DNA of 64,000 bases from Chitinophagaceae bacterium (GTDB lineage: Bacteria > Bacteroidota > Bacteroidia > Chitinophagales > Chitinophagaceae). Both the position numbers and the translations under genes were made by a program. Location of the stretch: positions 5,778 through 69,777 of the forward strand of contig DAOLIV010000004.1 in the NCBI GenBank assembly GCA_035328345.1, in the 5' to 3' direction. Below the pieces are notes generated by a model that was not told the origin of the DNA, made no database searches, and saw only the letters and a program-made list of their open reading frames with translations. Of the stretch, positions 1,950 to 11,235 are shown piece after piece (position 1 is the stretch's first letter; each line of letters opens with the position of its first letter).

Positions 1950-1959
1950 CAAATTTATG

Positions 1960-1990
1960 AAAAAAAGCCGTCTTCATTGCGCAAGACGGC
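1960..1990 (-). terminator. Intrinsic terminator of the first T9SS cargo gene
   Basis: 8-bp stem GCCGTCTT/AAGACGGC followed by 7 U on the minus strand. Confidence 0.85.
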
Positions 1991-2013
1991 CGGAACCCTT
2001 ATGTGTGAACAAG

Positions 2014-3315
2014 TTAGTGTTTAATAATCTTTTGTATAGCGATTTCACCATTGCAGGTAACTCTCACAAAATAGAATCCTGAAGATAGTTGGCTAACATT
2101 CATGGTTTCTGTCTGGCTACTACTGGCACTTTCAATTCTTTTTGCAACCTGGCCATTTGCCTGAAAAATCTCATAAATAACTTTCTTATTCTGCCAGTTG
2201 GTTGGAATTGTTATTCTTAATTCTGATGAAACAGGATTAGGATAGGTAACAATATTTACAGTAGCTTCTGATTGCTTACTGATCCTTATAACCCTTGTTT
2301 CAGAGTACTGAGCTTTTTCATCAATATCTACTGAACGAAGTCTGTAGTAAACTATAGCTGTCTGAAAATTACTCACATTATCAGTGTAGGTATAGTTTTT
2401 TTGATCAGTTGAATTACCATATGCGAATACCATCCCTATATCACTGTAATTGCTTCCATCTGTACTTCTTTCAATTACAAAATGGCTAACGTTTATCTCA
2501 GATGCAGTACTCCACTTCAGATCAACCTTATTGTTGTTATTCAAGGTGGCTGTAAATGCAGTTAGTTTAACCGGCAAAGTTGAACCAGGATAAGCAAAGC
2601 CTTTCATATATAAGCTATGCTGCCTGCTCGAAGAAGAGGATACAATGGTTAACGTACCATAGCGTACTGTTAGTGAAGAAATATTATTATTTTTTGCAGT
2701 GAACATATTATTCAGGTAAGAGGTATCAATACCGTTTCTTTCTATACCAAGAACATTTTGCCCGATATAATCTCCGGGTAAAATTTGTAACACTGAAATA
2801 TCAGGATTTGTCATCAGGTAATTCATTATTGAACCCACTCCGGTATTAATGCGGCAAAATTCTTTAAGAGTAGCATTTCCATCAATATCAAGTGCCGTGG
2901 CATTAACTGTGGGCATGATATACGAGTTAGTTGTGTTATGCTCATAGAATTTAATGGTAAAAACCGCATAAGACAAGCCAATAACATTTCCACTTTGTAC
3001 TGCCGGCTGAAAAGCATCCTTGTAACCGGTACCATTTGAGTTGTCATCGATTTTGCTCACTTTGGCTCCGTTCACAAGACTATCGATACTAATTACAGCA
3101 TCAACATTATTATCGACATTTGAAAAAAGATACTTGGCTCCTGCCTTAAGATCGGTACCAGAGATTAACTGGTAATTATCAAATTTAAGACCGTATGTAT
3201 TACTGCTTCCTCCACCAGATCCGCTCTGTGCTTCGCAGAATATGCTTATGCTAAAACCCAAAATCAACATCAGGGGCTTTAGCATGTTCTTTTTAAAAAG
3301 TAAAACTGTTTTCAT
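2014..3315 (-). CDS. T9SS-secreted protein: signal peptide, uncharacterised ~200-aa domain, LPVKL Ig-like domain, type A C-terminal sorting domain
   Basis: C-terminus TYPNPVSSELRI...LSSGFYFVRV...QKIIKH is a typical T9SS CTD; signal peptide ending CEAQ. ATG at 3315 (the track uses GTG at 3318). Confidence 0.9.
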   Translation of the reverse strand: MKTVLLFKKNMLKPLMLILGFSISIFCEAQSGSGGGSSNTYGLKFDNYQLISGTDLKAGAKYLFSNVDNNVDAVISIDSLVNGAKVSKIDDNSNGTGYKDAFQPAVQSGNVIGLSYAVFTIKFYEHNTTNSYIMPTVNATALDIDGNATLKEFCRINTGVGSIMNYLMTNPDISVLQILPGDYIGQNVLGIERNGIDTSYLNNMFTAKNNNISSLTVRYGTLTIVSSSSSRQHSLYMKGFAYPGSTLPVKLTAFTATLNNNNKVDLKWSTASEINVSHFVIERSTDGSNYSDIGMVFAYGNSTDQKNYTYTDNVSNFQTAIVYYRLRSVDIDEKAQYSETRVIRISKQSEATVNIVTYPNPVSSELRITIPTNWQNKKVIYEIFQANGQVAKRIESASSSQTETMNVSQLSSGFYFVRVTCNGEIAIQKIIKH

Positions 3316-3366
3316 CACTTTGGGTTTAGGGTTCCGAATTTGTAAGCCTGGTTGTTGAACTAAACC

Positions 3367-3444
3367 TCAGATTGCAATGAAAGCCGACTTGTCTTTTTGA
3401 AACTCCGGAAAGTAAGTTTCCGTAGTAAAGAGAGTTTGTTTCAT
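3367..3444 (-). CDS. Putative leader peptide / uORF (MKQTLFTTETYFPEFQKDKSAFIAI, 25 aa)
   Basis: Hand translation; starts inside the conserved leader; similar to the uORF at 5846-5902. Translation is unproven. Confidence 0.4.
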   Translation of the reverse strand: MKQTLFTTETYFPEFQKDKSAFIAI

Positions 3445-3482
3445 GGTCGGATTACGTTGTTTTCTAAGGGATCGTTCGATTC
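3439..3482 (-). repeat. 44-nt conserved 5' leader element, copy 1
   Basis: 43/44 identical to 5897-5940; begins 5 nt downstream of a TATGTTTG -7 box. Confidence 0.9.
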
Positions 3483-3487
3483 TGACA

Positions 3488-3518
3488 CAAACATAATACG
3501 AGGGTTTTTTACTTGCAA
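3488..3518 (-). promoter_or_regulatory. Housekeeping sigma promoter (TTG-N20-TATGTTTG)
   Basis: Matches the Bacteroidota -33/-7 consensus and spacing. Confidence 0.7.
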
Positions 3519-3639
3519 GTTTTGCAAGCATTTTTTCGTAAAAAATACCGTAATTTCTGTAGTATATCTACGATTTAAGTGTATGGACTATAGGCCACAC
3601 CATGATACTCAAGAGTTTATCCGTTCAAAAGAAATAAGA

Positions 3640-5748
3640 CTATTGTTTTATTATTTTTCGGCTTGATGTTTCCAGTTCGCAACTTACTCTCAGGATATAA
3701 AACCCTGAAGCAAGTCCACTAACAGTTACTGTCTCTGTTTGACTACTGTTGGCCCTTTCAATTCTGCGAATACTTTGCCCGTCAGCACGGAACAGTTCAT
3801 AAATTACTTTTCTATTCTGCCAACTTGCGGGAATAGTGATCTGTAAATCGTTTCGAACCGGATTTGGATAAGTAATTATAGAAACAATATTTGGATTATT
3901 GTTAGACAGCTTAATCAGCCTGATCTGTGAGTACATATATTTTTCATCGATATCAACAGTACGCAGCCGGTAATATAATATTGCATCGGATGCATTAATC
4001 ACATTATCATCAAAACTATAAGCCTGCTGTTCCATGGAGTTTCCTGCTGCAAAAACAACCCCAATATCTTTATAATCTGTTCCATTAATGCTCCTTTCAA
4101 CCACAAAGTGACTGACATTAAGTTCGGAAAGGGTTTTCCAGTTCAGCATAACCTTATTGCCATCATTACTAAGAACGGCAGTAAATGACTCCATTTTTAC
4201 CGGTAGTGTTGAAATCTGGGGATACATAAATCCCTTCATATAGATGCTGTACAACCTGGTTTCTGATGATGGTTGTGTGGTTTGCATTCCTATTTTGATT
4301 GTAAATGCAGAAACGTTGGAATTGGTTACTGAAAACATATATTGTTTGGCAGATGTATCAATTCCACCAACACTTTTACCGTCTATGTTAATCCCCCTAA
4401 AAGTTCCTGGCGAAACTTCAGTTAAAAGGATCGAAGGGTTTGACATAATGTAGGAAGCTGTTGCGCCAGTACCTAAACCTATTTCATCAAATTCTTTTAA
4501 TGCGGAACTTCCGTCAATATCAAGTCCTGTAAGACTAAATGAATTGAGGGTATGTGGAGTAGCAGTCCCGGTAATTCTATATGAAACAGTAAATACTCCA
4601 TAGGATTGCCCAACAATAGATCCCGACTTAATCTGAGGCTGAAAACCTTCTCTGAAACCAGAACCACTGTTATCATCAATTGTTGCGATTGATGCGCCAC
4701 CCTTAAGACTATCGATTTTTACAATAGCATCAATTCCAGGCGCAACTCCTTCATATTTATATTGTGCACCCACCTGCTTATCATTTCCTGCTATCAATAC
4801 AGGATTTGTACTCAGGTTAAGGGATGTTTCAGTAGATGACCAGGTTAGCCCGGCAGGAAAATAATTAAGTGAGCAATCTTGTGTTTGAGGCCCAGTAAGT
4901 TTTCCATTGACTTGATAGTTAGAGGGATTTCCTATACAATAAGCGTTAAGTGACAACCCCCCTGTTACTATAACCCCATTTGAAACCTGAATCTTATCGT
5001 TGCTGTAAACATTTGTCACATGATTTTTCAGCATGATATAGTCAATGCTTCCATTTGCAATTCCACCATTTATATTAAATTTTCCGCCTGTACTTGCTAT
5101 CTCAATCCTGAATGACTTATAATATGTATTCAAACCATTAACAGTGTAATCTCCTGAACCATGCATACCAAGCGAAACAGAGCTTCTATCAAGTGTATCG
5201 ATAGCGCCTGTCTTCAAATCATAATTACGTCCGAGGACCAATGAACTATTACGCAAAACAACTGTTCCCAGTTGATTTTCCCAGTCCTGGGCTATTTCAA
5301 CAAAACTATTTTTTATTTCTACGTAACCTCCGGTATTTTTAAAGCTACCACTTTGGGTTGTGCCAGATTCTCCACCCCCTGCAAATCTGTACTGCCTTAA
5401 TTCCGCATTAGCTATATTAATCTTCCCGGTAAGATTATTGTTTATATTCACTCCAGAGGCCACAATTAACCTGGGAGTGACTGATCCCGGGTTGCTAATA
5501 TTTATAAAGCCATTGTTATTAATATTTCCACCGGAATAGGTCACAATATGTTTAATATTTACAATTGCAGTCAGTGGAATATTTGAAGCATTAGGGATAT
5601 TGCCCCCTTGCCAGGTTGAAGCACTGTTCCAACTACCATTGGAAATTGTGGTAAAAGTCTGGGCTGAAGTTGTGAGAAAAAGTAAAACAGAAACTATAGA
5701 AAATGAGAAATGTTTGAATAGTTTCAAAAAGGGTACATACGTTTTCAT
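3640..5748 (-). CDS. T9SS-secreted protein, paralog of 2014-3315 with an extra N-terminal repeat-rich region
   Basis: Signal peptide, NGSWNSASTW motif, shared domain (GIDAIVKIDSL/NVDAVISIDSL; LDIDGSSALKEF/LDIDGNATLKEF), CTD TYPNPVRNDLQI...SGFYILRV...RKIIKQ. Confidence 0.9.
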   Translation of the reverse strand: MKTYVPFLKLFKHFSFSIVSVLLFLTTSAQTFTTISNGSWNSASTWQGGNIPNASNIPLTAIVNIKHIVTYSGGNINNNGFINISNPGSVTPRLIVASGVNINNNLTGKINIANAELRQYRFAGGGESGTTQSGSFKNTGGYVEIKNSFVEIAQDWENQLGTVVLRNSSLVLGRNYDLKTGAIDTLDRSSVSLGMHGSGDYTVNGLNTYYKSFRIEIASTGGKFNINGGIANGSIDYIMLKNHVTNVYSNDKIQVSNGVIVTGGLSLNAYCIGNPSNYQVNGKLTGPQTQDCSLNYFPAGLTWSSTETSLNLSTNPVLIAGNDKQVGAQYKYEGVAPGIDAIVKIDSLKGGASIATIDDNSGSGFREGFQPQIKSGSIVGQSYGVFTVSYRITGTATPHTLNSFSLTGLDIDGSSALKEFDEIGLGTGATASYIMSNPSILLTEVSPGTFRGINIDGKSVGGIDTSAKQYMFSVTNSNVSAFTIKIGMQTTQPSSETRLYSIYMKGFMYPQISTLPVKMESFTAVLSNDGNKVMLNWKTLSELNVSHFVVERSINGTDYKDIGVVFAAGNSMEQQAYSFDDNVINASDAILYYRLRTVDIDEKYMYSQIRLIKLSNNNPNIVSIITYPNPVRNDLQITIPASWQNRKVIYELFRADGQSIRRIERANSSQTETVTVSGLASGFYILRVSCELETSSRKIIKQ

Positions 5749-5845
5749 TGTTAATCATTTAAGGTACTTGGCTGTTTCACGGATATAAGTGGTCTTCCTT
5801 AGATACCTTAAAAACTTACCCTTGGTGAACAATGAGAACCGACTT

Positions 5846-5902
5846 TTAAAATTGGAAACAAAGAGAAAAGTAATTTTCCTTTGTAAGGATTGTTTCTTTC
5901 AT
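5846..5902 (-). CDS. Putative leader peptide / uORF (MKETILTKENYFSLCFQF, 18 aa)
   Basis: Hand translation; same position in the leader as copy 1 and a similar N-terminus. Translation is unproven. Confidence 0.4.
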   Translation of the reverse strand: MKETILTKENYFSLCFQF

Positions 5903-5940
5903 GGTCGGATTACATTGTTTTCTAAGGGATCGTTCGATTC
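5897..5940 (-). repeat. 44-nt conserved 5' leader element, copy 2
   Basis: 43/44 identical to 3439-3482; 5 nt downstream of a TATTTTTA -7-like box. Confidence 0.9.
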
Positions 5941-5945
5941 GATCA

Positions 5946-5977
5946 TAAAAATAATAGCTAGTTATTTTACTTGCAAA
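5946..5977 (-). promoter_or_regulatory. Housekeeping-type promoter (TTTG-N20-TATTTTTA)
   Basis: Same spacing as 3488-3518. Confidence 0.55.
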
Positions 5978-6088
5978 CATTCAAAGGATTTTTTCTAAAA
6001 AATTACCGTATTTTATGCAGTAATTTTACGATTAATATTGAAAATCAATATCTATAAAAAAGGATATTTAATAAGATTACTGTGAAAT

Positions 6089-9000
6089 TTACCTGATCAA
6101 TACCCAAGCCGCCCATTTATAAGGATCATTCCGGTATTTATTTCTCATTGCTGATTGAGTACTATAAAATGCGTCCTGAATATTATGTTTATAGAAAAGA
6201 TTCCGATAAAATACCTGCATGAACTCTGATGTCTCTTGGTCGGGTACTTTCCAGAGGCTCATTACCAGATTCTCAACTCCGGCAATTTTAAAGGCCCGCT
6301 GTAACCCATATACCCCTTCGCTTCCTTGTATATCTCCCAATCCTGTTTCACAAGCTGACAATATTGCCAATTTTGTTTTTGGTAAATACATATTAGAGAT
6401 TTCATAAGAAGTTAAAATCCCATCTTCTACCCCATTAACCGGTTTTCCCTTCCATGCATTATTGGCTCCTGCTAACGCCAGTCCTGAACGGATCAAGGGA
6501 TTATCTGATTGCCTGAAAACTTCATAGCCACCTGCCCTATCATTCTTTTTAAATTTTTTTGGGTCAGGGAAAAAAATTCCGTGAGTAGCAATATGAATAA
6601 CTGCTGGAGAGTTCTTACCATTCATTGATTTGAAAGATTCTTCAGTAGCATACTGACCTTCATGAACAGAAATAGAAAATTTATTCTGTTCTGCCAGTTT
6701 GCTGATACCATTTACTTCTTTGCTGGTACCGGCAAGATACCGGAACTCCGGTACGCCATCTCTTGTAAGATCTTCGGGAAGTGAGCGACTTACAACATCA
6801 TTTTCTGATGACTGCCTGGCAACCAATTTCATGGCTGTCGAATCCATATCATATTGCACACCTCCATATAGTATGATCTTATCTGATGCTGTGATAGTAA
6901 CTGCAACCTGGTCTACCACTGACGCCGTTGTATTCAACTGTACCAGTTTGACTTTATCACTCAATGCTTGCTTTTCATTTATGGGCAAGGCTGCAAATGC
7001 TATTTTAAACAATGACCCAGATGGAGCAAAATAAACAGTGTTTATTCCTTCCAGCTTTTCTTCCAACGGCTTCCAGATAAGGTCGTAAAGAGTCTTATTG
7101 TTGTTATCTTTCTTTTTATAGAGATAATTTATTTGTGCCTGCTCACCACTTGTGCCTTTATATATCTTTAATAAATCATTCAGTTCTTTCTCATCAAAAA
7201 GTTTAATCATCTCTGGTTCTGGCTTATCCTTTCGAAGCACTAATGCAATGTAATAAGTGCTGTCAGTCCAGCGATGTCCATTATAATATTGAAAAGATTG
7301 AAACTCAATTGCAGCTTCATTAGATTTCAAATAATGATGTATTTGATTTCTGTTGATTTCTTTACTTTCCTGTTGTGTTTTAAATAATTGGCTTTTTTTA
7401 TTAAGTACTTTTTCCAAAGAATCGGCCTCTGTAGTTAGCTCTTTTACAAAGACTGGATTTTTTTGAATTGGCTCAGTCAGCCAAAAGGTAAGTTGTTCAC
7501 GTTTGCGGATCCATAAATCATACAGCTTTTTTGTAGTAGTATCCGTAGTATGATAAATAGTCTGTCGGAGTTGGCGGGACGATCCGAGGATGAGGTTACG
7601 ATTCAGCAAAAACTGGTCATAAAGAAATCCTTTGCTAGTAGTGGGTGTTTGATTGGCACTAAAAGAAAAGAAAAAATTCTGCAAATTTGTTGCAGTCGAA
7701 ATATAAGCCTGTTGTTCTGACTCGTTGGTGAACTTAAATATTTTTTCTGTTTGATATTTAAGAAGATCCGCTCCCTTTTCATAGAATTTCTTGGCTTTTT
7801 CATCTTCATTCCTGGCCCAGTATACGTTGGCTAAATAATAGCAATTCTTGACAAAATGAGGATGTTGTTCTCCAAATGCTATTTTATATATTGCCAGAGC
7901 CTCACTATAATACTTTTCCGCTTTTGTATAATTGCCAGATTGATAATACACTCCTGCTAGGTCACTTTTACACTGAGCATAATCCGGGTGTTGATTTCCA
8001 ATACCGGGAATTTGTTCACGCAGCTCCATCGCTTCTAATAAAAACGCTTCAGCTTTTTTATAATCGCCTTTTAGCGAATAAAGTATTCCGAGGTGATTTA
8101 AACTAGAAGCATAATCATTATGCAGTCTCCCTAGTTTTTTCTCCCTGATTTCTTTTGCCTCGATATAATATTCCTCAGCTTCCTCATACATGCCCTTATT
8201 TGTATAAATATCACCTAAGTTCTTACAGCTTTGTGCGTAGTCCCGGTCTTCCCTCCCAAACAGTTTCTCCCTCTTGGCTTTAGCTTTTAAATGATATTCC
8301 TTAGACTTATCATACAATCCCATACTATTATATAATGTACCGAGATTATTAAGAGCCATCATATGATTTCTCGTATCCTCTTTATGATTAATAATGTCAT
8401 TTGCAATTCCGGCAAGATACAGTTCTTCTGCTTTTTCAAATTCACCTTGCAGCATGTAAATTCTTGCCAAGTTATTGCTAGTATTTGAATGTTCGGGGTG
8501 GCCAGCAGGAAGCACTTTCTCCCTTATACGCTTCGCTTCTTTACAATAGGCTGCAGCTCTTTCAAAATCGCCCATGTCAGTATAAACAATACTTAAATTA
8601 TTACACGAAGACGCATAATCAGGATTCTCTATCCCTTCGCTTCCATTGATCTCTTTTGACTCTAGAAAAATTGATTCAGCTAATTTTAATCTGCCGCTTT
8701 GACCCATGATTCTCCCTAGGTTACTGTTACTTATTATGTAAATGGAATGTATCCTTGTATTTAGCTGCTTTACCATTCCGGCCGTGTCAATAAGCTCTAT
8801 ATCATGCAACACCTCTTTTAGTATTGACTCAGCTTTATCATCTTGTTCTGTTTCTACATATAGCATTGCCAGATTGAAATTTGATTGTACAAACCCTAAG
8901 TTTTTTTTACCTATTTCCCTTTGAATTTCCAAGGACTCTACAACAGTTGAAATAGCTTTATCATATTGATTCTTTTTTGCATAAATACTAACCAATACGT

Positions 9001-9457
9001 TATACATATTTAAGTGATCCGGGTGGGTTCTTCCAAGTATTACTTCTCGAATCTGCTTAGTTTCTAACGCCATTTGTTCGGCTTCTTCTATTTTTTTTTC
9101 CTTGAAATAAAGCAAGCACAGATTAAAACAGCTTTCAGCATAATCTGCAGATTGTTTACCGTTTATTTTTTCGACAATATCCTTAAACTCCTGATAAAAT
9201 ATTTCAGCGCTATCCAAAGTATTGGTTTGCTCAAATAGCCATCCAATATTACCAACAATGGCTGCATGTGTATTTGTTTGAAAAGAATCTATTGGAAGGT
9301 TTTTTTTTGCCAGTATGAAAAAATTGATTGCCTTGTCGATATTTTTTTCTTCTTTATAAAAAGAAGCACTATCCACATACTGTTTCCAAAGTTGTCCTTG
9401 TGCAGAAGCGGATAGTACCATCAATAACAGCAAAAAAGCTGATCTAACTTTTCTCAT
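6089..9457 (-). CDS. CHAT-domain (caspase-like) peptidase with N-terminal TPR array and signal peptide
   Basis: Repeated ~42-aa TPRs (HPDYA..NNL..Y...G.F..AE); CHAT dyad IHIATHG and LSACETG; C-terminal PYKWAAWVL. Confidence 0.92.
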   Translation of the reverse strand: MRKVRSAFLLLLMVLSASAQGQLWKQYVDSASFYKEEKNIDKAINFFILAKKNLPIDSFQTNTHAAIVGNIGWLFEQTNTLDSAEIFYQEFKDIVEKINGKQSADYAESCFNLCLLYFKEKKIEEAEQMALETKQIREVILGRTHPDHLNMYNVLVSIYAKKNQYDKAISTVVESLEIQREIGKKNLGFVQSNFNLAMLYVETEQDDKAESILKEVLHDIELIDTAGMVKQLNTRIHSIYIISNSNLGRIMGQSGRLKLAESIFLESKEINGSEGIENPDYASSCNNLSIVYTDMGDFERAAAYCKEAKRIREKVLPAGHPEHSNTSNNLARIYMLQGEFEKAEELYLAGIANDIINHKEDTRNHMMALNNLGTLYNSMGLYDKSKEYHLKAKAKREKLFGREDRDYAQSCKNLGDIYTNKGMYEEAEEYYIEAKEIREKKLGRLHNDYASSLNHLGILYSLKGDYKKAEAFLLEAMELREQIPGIGNQHPDYAQCKSDLAGVYYQSGNYTKAEKYYSEALAIYKIAFGEQHPHFVKNCYYLANVYWARNEDEKAKKFYEKGADLLKYQTEKIFKFTNESEQQAYISTATNLQNFFFSFSANQTPTTSKGFLYDQFLLNRNLILGSSRQLRQTIYHTTDTTTKKLYDLWIRKREQLTFWLTEPIQKNPVFVKELTTEADSLEKVLNKKSQLFKTQQESKEINRNQIHHYLKSNEAAIEFQSFQYYNGHRWTDSTYYIALVLRKDKPEPEMIKLFDEKELNDLLKIYKGTSGEQAQINYLYKKKDNNNKTLYDLIWKPLEEKLEGINTVYFAPSGSLFKIAFAALPINEKQALSDKVKLVQLNTTASVVDQVAVTITASDKIILYGGVQYDMDSTAMKLVARQSSENDVVSRSLPEDLTRDGVPEFRYLAGTSKEVNGISKLAEQNKFSISVHEGQYATEESFKSMNGKNSPAVIHIATHGIFFPDPKKFKKNDRAGGYEVFRQSDNPLIRSGLALAGANNAWKGKPVNGVEDGILTSYEISNMYLPKTKLAILSACETGLGDIQGSEGVYGLQRAFKIAGVENLVMSLWKVPDQETSEFMQVFYRNLFYKHNIQDAFYSTQSAMRNKYRNDPYKWAAWVLIR

Positions 9458-9654: not shown

Positions 9655-11235
9655 CTATCCTTTGTATTGAGGTATCAACCCGTTTGCAAGCTCTACCATT
9701 TTCTTGATTCCATCTTCAGGAAGGTTTCCTTTTTTAAACTCTGCCATCACATCCGGTAATTTATTCTCCATTTCCAAAAGGAAGTGATCTTCAAATTCCT
9801 TCACTCTCTTAACCGGGATGTCTTTGATCAAACCATTGGTTCCCAAATAAATAATAGCTACCTGTTTTTCAACCGGGAAAGGTGAGTATTGGGCCTGTTT
9901 CAGAATCTCCACGTTGCGGGCACCCTTATCAATTACATTCTTGGTAGCTGCATCCAGATCACCACCAAATTTGGAGAAAGCTTCTAACTCACGGTAAAGT
10001 GCCTGGTCCAGTTTCAGGGTACCGGCAACTTTTTTCATTGACTTGATCTGAGCATTTCCACCCACACGACTCACAGAAATACCTACGTTGATCGCAGGAC
10101 GAATACCTGAAAGAAACAGGTTTGTTTCCAGAAATATCTGTCCGTCTGTAATAGAAATTACGTTTGTTGGTATATAAGCCGATACGTCACCGGCCTGTGT
10201 TTCGATAATCGGTAATGCAGTTAAAGATCCTCCACCTTTGATCATGTGTTTGATAGAATCAGGAACATCATTCATGTTCTTTGCCACATTATCATCACTG
10301 ATTACTTTGGCAGCTCTTTCTAACAAGCGACTATGGAGATAGAATACATCACCGGGATATGCTTCACGACCCGGAGGACGACGAAGCAATAATGATACTT
10401 CACGATAAGCCACCGCCTGTTTTGACAGATCATCATAAATGATCAATGCCGGGCGACCAGTATCACGGAAAAACTCACCGATCGCAGCACCAGCAAAAGG
10501 CGCATAGAACTGTAATGGTGCAGGATCAGAAGCAGAAGCTGCAACGATAGTTGTATACTCCATCGCACCATTGTCCTGCAAGGTTTTCATCACATTGGCA
10601 ATAGTTGAAGCTTTCTGACCTATCGCCACATATATACAGTAAACCGGTTTACCGGCATTATAAAACTCTTTTTGATTGATAATTGTATCAATACAAATGG
10701 CAGTTTTGCCGGTTTGGCGGTCACCAATTACCAATTCCCTTTGACCACGACCGATCGGGATCATTGCATCAATGGCTTTGATACCTGTTTGCAAAGGTTC
10801 CTTTACCGGCTCACGGAATATCACTCCCGGTGCTTTTCTTTCCAGGGGCATTTCATATCGTTCACCAGTTATAGGTCCTTTACCGTCAATCGGGTCACCC
10901 AAAGTGTTTACCACACGGCCAACCATACCTTCACCTACTTTAATTGATGCGATCTGGCCTGTGCGGCGTACTTTGGAACCTTCTTCGATCTTTCCTGTTT
11001 CCCCCATCAATACCACACCCACATTATCTTCCTCCAGGTTTAATGCAATTGCACGAACACCATTTTCAAATTCCACAAGTTCACCGTAGCGAACATTACC
11101 AAGCCCATATACCCGGGCAATACCATCCCCTACCTGCAATACAGTTCCTACTTCTTCCAGGTCAGCAGAAGCATTGAAGTTGCTTAACTGCTGGCGGAGT
11201 ATCGCACTTATCTCATCAGGTTTAATGTCTGCCAT
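9655..11235 (-). CDS. atpA: F0F1 ATP synthase subunit alpha
   Basis: GDRQTGKT Walker A; [23 protein letters not shown]. Confidence 0.99.

Follow-up and report, generated by a model that had tools for sequence, protein, structure and literature searches.

A conserved structured 5' leader on a subfamily of type IX secretion cargo genes in Chitinophagaceae

Related leaders and the locus under study

The closest described counterparts of the element reported here are mRNA leaders in which one segment has a choice of two partners. As in the Escherichia coli rpoS 5' untranslated region (UTR) and in translational riboswitch platforms, a segment of a long 5' UTR can pair with an upstream arm or with the start region; in the present element the competing folds are close in predicted energy. 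The present element precedes two paralogous type IX secretion system (T9SS) cargo genes in a 64,000-nt stretch of DNA, referred to as the window, from an uncultured Chitinophagaceae bacterium (GCA_035328345.1, contig DAOLIV010000004.1, positions 5,778–69,777 of the forward strand). No earlier description of this cis-acting, structured 5' UTR was found, and it occurs on a single subfamily of T9SS cargo genes within Chitinophagaceae. Its structure and its specificity for this gene family are well supported, and it probably controls translation of the cargo genes. Taken as a whole, the observations are best explained by a leader that acts as a translational switch, a reading that is held tentatively and at somewhat less than even confidence.

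Compared with the rpoS leader and the riboswitch platforms, the element shows no sequence or structural homology (the Rfam search was negative), and the part that would be masked is the start codon with its A-rich surroundings rather than a Shine-Dalgarno site. Moreover, its default fold leaves the start open, and its upstream arm resembles the start region. Like the 5' hairpin of E. coli ompA mRNA, it is a stem-loop that begins a few nucleotides from the (here predicted) 5' end of a message whose product is an envelope or secreted protein, but the rod-like hairpin described below is much longer, is strongly conserved in primary sequence and has an alternative pairing partner. Metabolite and ion riboswitch aptamers contain conserved unpaired nucleotides or a junction; in the rod the helices are conserved and the internal loops vary. 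The leader-bearing genes all encode T9SS cargo or Fn3-like surface proteins rather than the members of a single metabolic or transport pathway. In RNA thermometers (ROSE, fourU, prfA) the start codon or ribosome-binding site lies inside the hairpin, whereas the AUG here lies 8–59 nt downstream and is unpaired in the minimum free energy (MFE) rod. The orphan cis-regulatory RNA motifs found in surveys of the Weinberg/Breaker type are likewise lineage-restricted, covarying 5' UTR structures tied to one gene family; the leader differs in being absent from Rfam 15, restricted to Chitinophagaceae and located on T9SS cargo paralogues rather than metabolic genes.

In Bacteroidota, whose ribosomes ignore Shine-Dalgarno sequences, very little is known of how genes are controlled after transcription, and Hfq, ProQ and CsrA are not known from this phylum. 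The leader offers a testable model of control by start-codon accessibility in these bacteria and a handle on the coordinated expression of T9SS cargo, and the covariance model built here (R1, about 70 members so far) provides a new RNA family for the annotation of Chitinophagaceae genomes. Structured 5' regions have been reported in the Flavobacterium psychrophilum transcriptome (PMC9723704).

The leader hairpin and its family

All features of the two cargo loci given below lie on the minus strand of the window. An earlier note on this DNA had drawn attention to a 44-nt block, GAAUCGAACGAUCCCUUAGAAAACAA[C/U]GUAAUCCGACCAUGAAA, that is 43/44 identical between the two genes (3482–3439 and 5940–5897), to a -33/-7 promoter that ends 5 nt before it, to a short upstream open reading frame (uORF) of 25 codons at 3444–3367 and of 18 codons at 5902–5846, and to a second block further downstream (AAGUCGGCUUUCAUU at 3390–3376 and AAGUCGGUUCUCAUU at 5845–5831). 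Each of these features reads as it was described. The 44-nt block has two matches in the window against none expected from shuffled sequences, and BLAST and fuzzy searches find only these two copies in the whole 3.85-Mb genome. The note's view that the flanking DNA has diverged holds in part: the block is the more conserved portion (98%), but the promoter and upstream region are still about 80% identical between the two copies over 167 nt, and the region before the AUG is conserved throughout the family.

Together, the two blocks supply the arms of a rod-like, interrupted hairpin of about 130 nt. It begins near +6 of the predicted transcript, and the same fold is obtained as the single-sequence MFE structure of about 30 leaders. 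From the outside inwards, the rod contains the helices P0 (GAAC/GUUC), Pa (CCCUUAGA/UCUGAGG), Pb (CGA/UUG), P1 (GAAA.CCGA/UCGG.UUUC), P2 (UGAAACA.AC/GU.UGUUUCA) and P3 (GGGAA/UUCCC, closed by an nnUAC loop), and it is interrupted by two large internal loops whose sequence varies among relatives. The CCGAC/GUCGG complementarity pointed out in the note corresponds to helix P1. Copy 1 occupies positions 3353..3482 (R1 score, 123 bits), with P0 formed by GAAC 3477–3474 and GUUC 3360–3357, P1 by CCGA 3450–3447 and UCGG 3387–3384, and P2 and P3 between them; copy 2 occupies positions 5808..5940 (107 bits) and carries AACAAUG in its 5' arm and CAUUGUU (5834–5828) in its 3' arm. The MFE is -28.3 kcal/mol for copy 1 (z -2.6) and -32.2 kcal/mol for copy 2 (z -3.7).

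Compensatory changes are found with and without the use of the model. With 28 copies aligned by MAFFT without reference to structure, 85.6% of the cells at the proposed pairs can pair, against 24–50% when the 3' partners are slid by 1–3 columns, and 12 pairs are doubly changed, against 6.5±1.5 in shuffled alignments (reached in 1/500) and 5–7 in the slid controls. When 68 copies from at least 15 genera were aligned to R1, compensatory changes were found in 22 of the 36 pairs (12.0±2.0 in shuffles; 0/500 as high), with 92 doubly changed cells against 30 in the shuffles and a covariation score of 0.132 against 0.017–0.051 in the slid controls. Examples are an A-U to U-A exchange (38 and 12 copies) and an A-U to G-C exchange (35 and 8 copies) at two pairs of P2, and a G-C to A-U exchange in P3 (46 and 15 copies). 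The earlier note had allowed that the block might be a duplication relic, present in these two copies alone and free of covariation; many relatives carry the element and 22 of its 36 pairs show compensatory changes. The block is therefore not a duplication relic but the 5' arm of the hairpin.

The element is confined to a narrow lineage. With 231 nt of leader 1 as the BLAST query, matches of 76–85% identity over about 200 nt turned up in 24 of the 36 genomes that represent the genus, each with 1–4 copies that are often in tandem. The R1 search extended it to 15 of 151 Chitinophagaceae genera, and no element was found by R1 in about 290 genomes of other Bacteroidia families. A degenerate DNA pattern is too loose when used alone and gives many chance matches in other phyla; of 80 loci from such a scan that were screened with R1, 24 contained a total of 30 matches, and all 24 belong to records labelled Chitinophagaceae, Chitinophaga, Sphingobacteriales or Bacteroidota/Bacteroidetes. 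The carriers are almost all uncultured metagenome-assembled genomes. Searched against Rfam 15, the window and seven relatives gave no match at the gathering score, and at E ≤ 10 there were only three chance matches, all to eukaryotic RNA families; a full-text literature search found no description of the leader. The earlier note's remark that no described element was recognised agrees with both searches.

The genes that follow the leader form one subfamily. In 67 of the 68 copies an open reading frame (ORF), usually beginning with MKT, starts 8–59 nt downstream; the remaining copy is cut by a contig end. The predicted proteins have a signal peptide and a common Fn3-like module (LPVKL...SHFxVERS...YYRL), their heads fall into several unrelated kinds, and most also bear the T9SS C-terminal domain (Por_Secre_tail). 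About 22 distant paralogues of the module and C-terminal domain are encoded in the window genome without a leader. At a few related loci (L042, L034/L111, L022 and L059) the leader precedes small ORFs of 122–137 aa that consist of a signal peptide and the Fn3-like module and lack the T9SS C-terminal domain.

In the window, cargo gene 1 (3315–2014) encodes 433 aa, counted from the conserved AUG, with a signal peptide, a head domain, the Fn3-like module and a T9SS type A C-terminal domain. Cargo gene 2 (5748–3640; 702 aa) encodes a longer protein with a different head, an additional stretch of about 300 aa at the N-terminus, and the same C-terminal Fn3-like module and T9SS domain. The two proteins are paralogues with 51% identity across 386 aa. 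Both begin with MKT followed by a hydrophobic stretch closing in AQ, and both match Por_Secre_tail (PF18962; E = 4e-14 and 2e-10) and the T9SS sorting domain TIGR04183 (E = 1e-12 and 3e-10); they thus combine the N-terminal signal peptide and the C-terminal Por_Secre_tail domain by which T9SS type A cargo is recognised.

The uORFs lie inside the hairpin. That of copy 1 (3367..3444; MKQTLFTTETYFPEFQKDKSAFIAI) spans P2, P3 and the 3' arm and is judged non-functional as a conserved peptide, and that of copy 2 (5846..5902; MKETILTKENYFSLCFQF) is not conserved. Leader-peptide attenuators such as those of ermC, cat/cmlA and the trpL type also have a short ORF that overlaps a hairpin, as the two window copies do, but in the present family neither start codon, frame nor length is conserved and there is no coding signature. 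The start triplet is ATG in 26 copies, CTG in 31, GTG in 3, TTG in 3 and another triplet in 5, and it varies even within the genus; its T and G form the first two pairs of P2, and the base before them is an unpaired, freely varying loop position. At least three frames occur, ORF lengths extend from 0 to beyond 50 codons, many lineages have had their frame shifted by single-nucleotide indels in the P3 loop, and the entropies at codon positions 1, 2 and 3 (0.85, 1.03 and 0.95) show no third-position excess, either in all copies or in the ATG-bearing ones alone.

These counts bear on the possibility that translation of, or stalling on, an 18–25-codon uORF remodels the hairpin and so exposes or hides the main start. 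An AUG is present in both window copies and in 26 of the 68 family members, where the modal length is 26 codons with an end in the 3' arm, and a ribosome on the uORF would unwind P2, P3 and the anti-start segment introduced below. Attenuation of this kind is nevertheless most improbable, given the CUG-bearing copies, the within-genus variation and the absence of a codon-position pattern; in addition, the putative start sits at the foot of P2 beside P1, a poor context for structure-sensitive initiation independent of the Shine-Dalgarno sequence (PMC6847099). The earlier note had proposed a leader peptide or a cis-RNA switch. The second half of that proposal agrees with the covarying hairpin, the complementarity to the start and the lack of an Rfam match, and the first half is not supported, the uORF being unconserved. 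The peptide likeness, which the note found to fit constraint at the RNA level, is a by-product of that constraint: the apparent peptide conservation (MKQT...Y.P.CF...SVFIAI) is translated conserved helices. The uORF is incidental and coding is not what selection maintains in the leader family, judging from the variation among its members, though the two window uORFs may be translated. Small ORFs upstream of such genes therefore call for caution before they are annotated as genes. The single C/U difference between the two blocks (5911–5916) creates an AUGUAA start-stop pair in copy 2.

The helices of the inner hairpin include invariant parts (AUCCGA...UCGG, UGAAAC...GUUUCA and GGGAA-nnUAC-UUCCC), which could indicate that the leader is a sensor, either a protein operator or a small-ligand riboswitch, that affects transcription elongation or the fate of the mRNA through this hairpin and not by masking the start. 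Besides the strong sequence conservation within helices and in the UAC of the P3 loop, the AAUC(C/G) motifs repeated in the 5' arm, the strict link to one gene subfamily and the lack of a matching RNA family are all compatible with a sensor. On the other hand, the rod has no multi-helix junction or pseudoknot, its two large internal loops vary, and the genes controlled encode surface or secreted proteins, not metabolic or transport functions that would point to a ligand. Nor does the sense strand contain an intrinsic terminator between the rod and the AUG, a result by which a terminator/attenuator was rejected as a candidate and which also speaks against an effect on elongation. A sensor of this kind is unlikely.

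The start region and an alternative pairing

The translation-initiation regions are themselves conserved. That of gene 1 (3304..3335) consists of the box GGAACCCUAAA (3335–3325) followed by AAAGUG AUG AAAACA, with the AUG at 3315–3313, and that of gene 2 (5737..5765) of the box UACCUUAAA (5765–5758) and AACAAUGAAAAC, with the AUG at 5748–5746. Alignments of relatives give the family consensus AACCCUAAAnnGAAAACGAUGAAAAC, and the A-rich region before the AUG is conserved across genera as AACCCUAAAnnGAAAACG-AUG-AAAAC. The start box is not a general signal elsewhere in the window genome.

In most copies, the sequence of the 3' arm (GGUUUUCAUUGC) is also the complement of CGAUGAAAAC, the main start region. 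This includes the UUUCAU/AUGAAA complementarity of the earlier note, which is present in the window and recurs in most of 65 relatives. For the anti-start segment of copy 1, CUUUCAUUGC (3374..3383), the 5' arm is the partner within the rod, and GUGAUGAAA at the main start offers a second complementary stretch. More generally, the segment GGUUUUCAUUG(C/U) of the 3' arm is the partner of the 5' arm in the rod and the complement of (A/G)C(G/A)AUGAAAAC at the start, so that one segment is complementary to two mutually exclusive partners, as in a three-part switch, and this is conserved in relatives. Among the 65 copies, pairing between arm and start is possible in 83–95% at 10/11 of the positions -2 to +8, with lower values at +7 (51%) and -3 (59%). 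The duplex has a mean energy of -9.0 kcal/mol, compared with -4.9 kcal/mol for shuffled start regions. Position -1 (G or A) and position -2 (C or U) can mostly pair with the near-invariant U and G of the arm (83–85% of copies); at position -3 an arm U faces A in 19 copies, and an arm C faces G in 18 copies or A in 16.

The 5' arm in turn resembles the sequence that its partner could mask. Its segment GAAAACGACGAAAUCC and the start region GAAAACGAUGAAAACA share on average 10.1 identities in 18 positions, against 5.4 at control offsets, and copy 2 has the heptamer AACAAUG in its 5' arm and again in its start region, with CAUUGUU in the 3' arm; it is the C/U difference between the blocks that makes the copy 2 arm match its own start region over AACAAUG. 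The two states were compared by constrained folding, where the anti-start state keeps the inner hairpin and replaces the outer rod by the arm:start pairing. The closed rod is favoured by a median of 3.4 kcal/mol, and 12 of 43 copies have an anti-start state that is at least as stable; for copy 1 the values are -32.3 kcal/mol for the rod and -27.8 kcal/mol for the anti-start state, a difference of +4.5.

Together these features suggest a three-part translational switch, a mechanism that is plausible on the grounds of complementarity and predicted energies. Transcription from the conserved -33/-7 promoter would yield a leader of about 170–195 nt, the first ~130 nt of which would fold as the rod. 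In the closed rod, GGUUUUCAUUG(C/U) would be held by the 5' arm, leaving the start codon single-stranded and translation on. If the 5' arm were occupied or removed (by a protein, a trans-acting RNA or 5' processing), the 3'-arm segment would be set free to pair with positions -3 to +8 of the start region (the GUUUUCAUUG:CGAUGAAAAC alternative), and translation would be off. The inner hairpin P1b-P2-P3 would persist in both states and may serve as a platform for recognition of the trigger. In Bacteroidia, initiation does without Shine-Dalgarno pairing and is modulated by upstream adenines and by structure (PMC6847099, PMC7797042), so that hiding positions -3 to +8 should be an effective way to turn translation off. 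Conservation of the 5' arm is in line with a second role: its identity between genomes is 79%, compared with 56% in the arm it pairs with and 51% in the inner part, which implies a function beyond pairing and suggests that the arm is also read by something else, be it a protein, an RNA or a nuclease. Such a reader would be the natural trigger.

A more elaborate version of the switch, which we regard as doubtful, is a dedicated Chitinophagaceae RNA circuit in which the start would be masked by the 3' arm of the leader and, on some genes, by a box in the 3' UTR, the look-alike 5' arm would hold the mask away, and the balance would depend on a trans factor recognising the invariant 5' arm, which might report on secretion capacity or surface state. 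If true, it would be a start-codon-centred counterpart of the switches that sequester Shine-Dalgarno sequences, in bacteria whose ribosomes ignore those sequences, and it would be the first case in which T9SS cargo has a post-transcriptional control of its own.

The same rod could instead be a passive 5' stabiliser, comparable to that of ompA, that protects the mRNA against decay starting from the 5' end, or a processing mark, with no switching and with a coincidental complementarity to the start. Its position at about +6, its recurrence as the MFE structure in most copies, the unpaired start region in that structure and the near lack of covariation in the arm:start pairing would all be expected of a stabiliser. 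However, a stabiliser needs pairing and not sequence, yet the helices and the 5' arm are nearly invariant across genera, and it leaves the likeness between 5' arm and start and the near-isoenergetic alternative fold unexplained. We consider a purely stabilising role improbable. A different long-range contact, AUCG/CGAU between the extreme 5' end and the start codon, appeared in a few MFE folds and was rejected as a candidate: the bases on the start side vary (CGAUG, CAAUG, GUGAUG) and the 5' end is invariant.

Several results weigh against a translational switch formed by the sense-strand RNA. The 68-copy alignment was built with the model and is biased towards the model's own structure. RNAalifold recovered only three pairs of P3 from it, with a consensus energy of -0.4 kcal/mol, and likewise P3 alone from the MAFFT alignment. 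This weak consensus energy is explained by the AU-rich composition of the rod and its interruption by two large variable loops, and reliance was consequently placed on single-sequence folds, explicit pair counts and controls. In the arm:start pairing only position -3 covaries, and weakly (46 of 1000 shuffles reach the observed value), and the other positions are invariant; the complementarity may be a by-product, with AUGAAAAC kept for Met-Lys-Thr coding and UUUUCAU for pairing in the rod. In copy 2 the rod is favoured by as much as 10.7 kcal/mol. A search of the genome for trans partners, with complementarity either to the 5' arm or to the start region, gave nothing beyond 11–13-mers at chance level. 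The transcription start site (TSS), at about 3483–3482 for gene 1, is predicted from the promoter consensus alone in both copies. Finally, the predicted fold of the antisense strand is the more stable one (-40.6 against -28.3 kcal/mol for copy 1 and -38.6 against -32.2 kcal/mol for copy 2), and A.C cells outnumber G.U cells in total (102 against 70).

The mismatched cells can also be sorted by the base they carry. Where the 5' side carries a G in a non-Watson-Crick cell, G.U (37) exceeds G.A and G.G together (15), whereas among A-bearing cells A.C (55) is not favoured over A.A (67) or A.G (66), and one poorly aligned column supplies a quarter of the A.C cells. This pattern and the position of the element between a conserved promoter and an ORF fit a reading as sense-strand RNA. 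The strand question also touches on the notion that conservation acts on the DNA, through a transcription-factor operator at +1 to +45 or through gene conversion between tandem paralogues, the inverted repeat being irrelevant to RNA. Here the better folding of the antisense strand gives sense-strand RNA no preference, 5' arms are somewhat more alike within a genome (0.86) than between genomes (0.79), and DNA-binding regulators clearly act on the locus, as about 110 bp upstream of the TSS are also conserved and contain TTGATnATCAA and CTTGCAAG palindromes. A protein operator would not be expected to show compensatory changes at 22 of 36 pairs across genera, however, and the contrast between a promoter of ~80% identity and a block of 98% in the window copies does not fit one recent conversion tract. 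With the G.U against A.C pattern also favouring sense RNA, conservation at the DNA level alone is very unlikely.

Promoters, 3' UTR and neighbouring genes

The promoter boxes were assigned with the Bacteroidota consensus TTG...TAnnTTTG. The promoter of cargo gene 1 (3488..3519) has a -33 box CTTGCAAG at 3519–3512 and a -7 box TATGTTTG at 3495–3488, and that of cargo gene 2 (5946..5976) has TTGCAAG at 5976–5970 and TATTTTTA at 5953–5946. The TAnnTTTG-type -7 box ends 5 nt before the 44-nt block in both copies, and the boxes are kept across 66 relatives. The -33 box CTTGCAAG is an 8-bp palindrome that is almost invariant in the leader family. The conserved ~110 bp 5' of the TSS include the motif ATACTACAGAAAATACGGTATTTTTTACGAAA in addition to the TTGATnATCAA palindrome, and this conservation makes control at the level of transcription likely as well.

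Further palindromic sequences surround the promoters. TTGATnATCAATA, which is probably a transcription-factor site, lies at 6036–6048 upstream of copy 2 and about 105 nt 5' of the TSS in most relatives, and is absent upstream of copy 1 in the window. Upstream of copy 1, a second partial copy of CTTGCAAG (3512–3528) yields GCTTGCAAAACTTGCAAG, which on the plus strand scores as a terminator-like hairpin followed by CATTTTTTCG. In related loci (e.g., L023, L041, L011 and L017) a short inverted repeat is located just 5' of the -33 box, at about -58 to -42 from the TSS; its sequence varies by genome and its self-complementarity is kept (GGGAAATTTCCC, AGATAATTATCT, CGAAAAAATTCG, GAGAAAAAATCCTC).

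The 3' UTR of gene 1 contains a module (1957..2000) made up of the box AAGGGUUCCG (2000–1991), a terminator hairpin (1991–1966) and U7-CAU. The box is complementary over 9 bp to the start-region box CGGAACCCU of the same gene, with a duplex energy of -20.8 kcal/mol (z -2.6). This recalls the pairing of 5' and 3' UTRs in icaR mRNA of Staphylococcus aureus and autoregulatory 3'-UTR elements, but here the GGGTTCC box and terminator occur in only 21 of 52 relatives, usually behind the last gene of the array, the complementarity to the own start region is modest (mean z -1.6), and gene 2 has no such module. A pairing between the 3' UTR box and the start would be a lead, drawn from base complementarity.

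The cargo pair is directly preceded by a gene for a 1122-aa TPR-repeat protein with a CHAT (caspase-like) domain (6089–9457, minus strand), which is itself preceded by ATP synthase genes (atpA, 9655–11235, and those for the delta and b subunits). The neighbours with Pfam matches comprise ATP synthase subunits, the CHAT-TPR protein and a TonB-type receptor; no integrase is among them, and an integron attC-like cassette site was rejected as a candidate, the element being conserved in sequence and sitting between promoter and ORF. Cargo gene 1 is followed by a gene (1901–3, minus strand) for a protein with CarboxypepD_reg and Plug domains that resembles TonB-dependent receptors, and the order of cargo gene(s) and CarboxypepD_reg/Plug gene is held across genera. 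This gene has its own near-invariant promoter, AATTTGGTTTATATTATAAACTACTTTATGTTTGT (TTTG, a 20-nt spacer and TATGTTTG), at 1915–1955 on the minus strand, and the same promoter is found 3' of the last cargo gene in most related loci.

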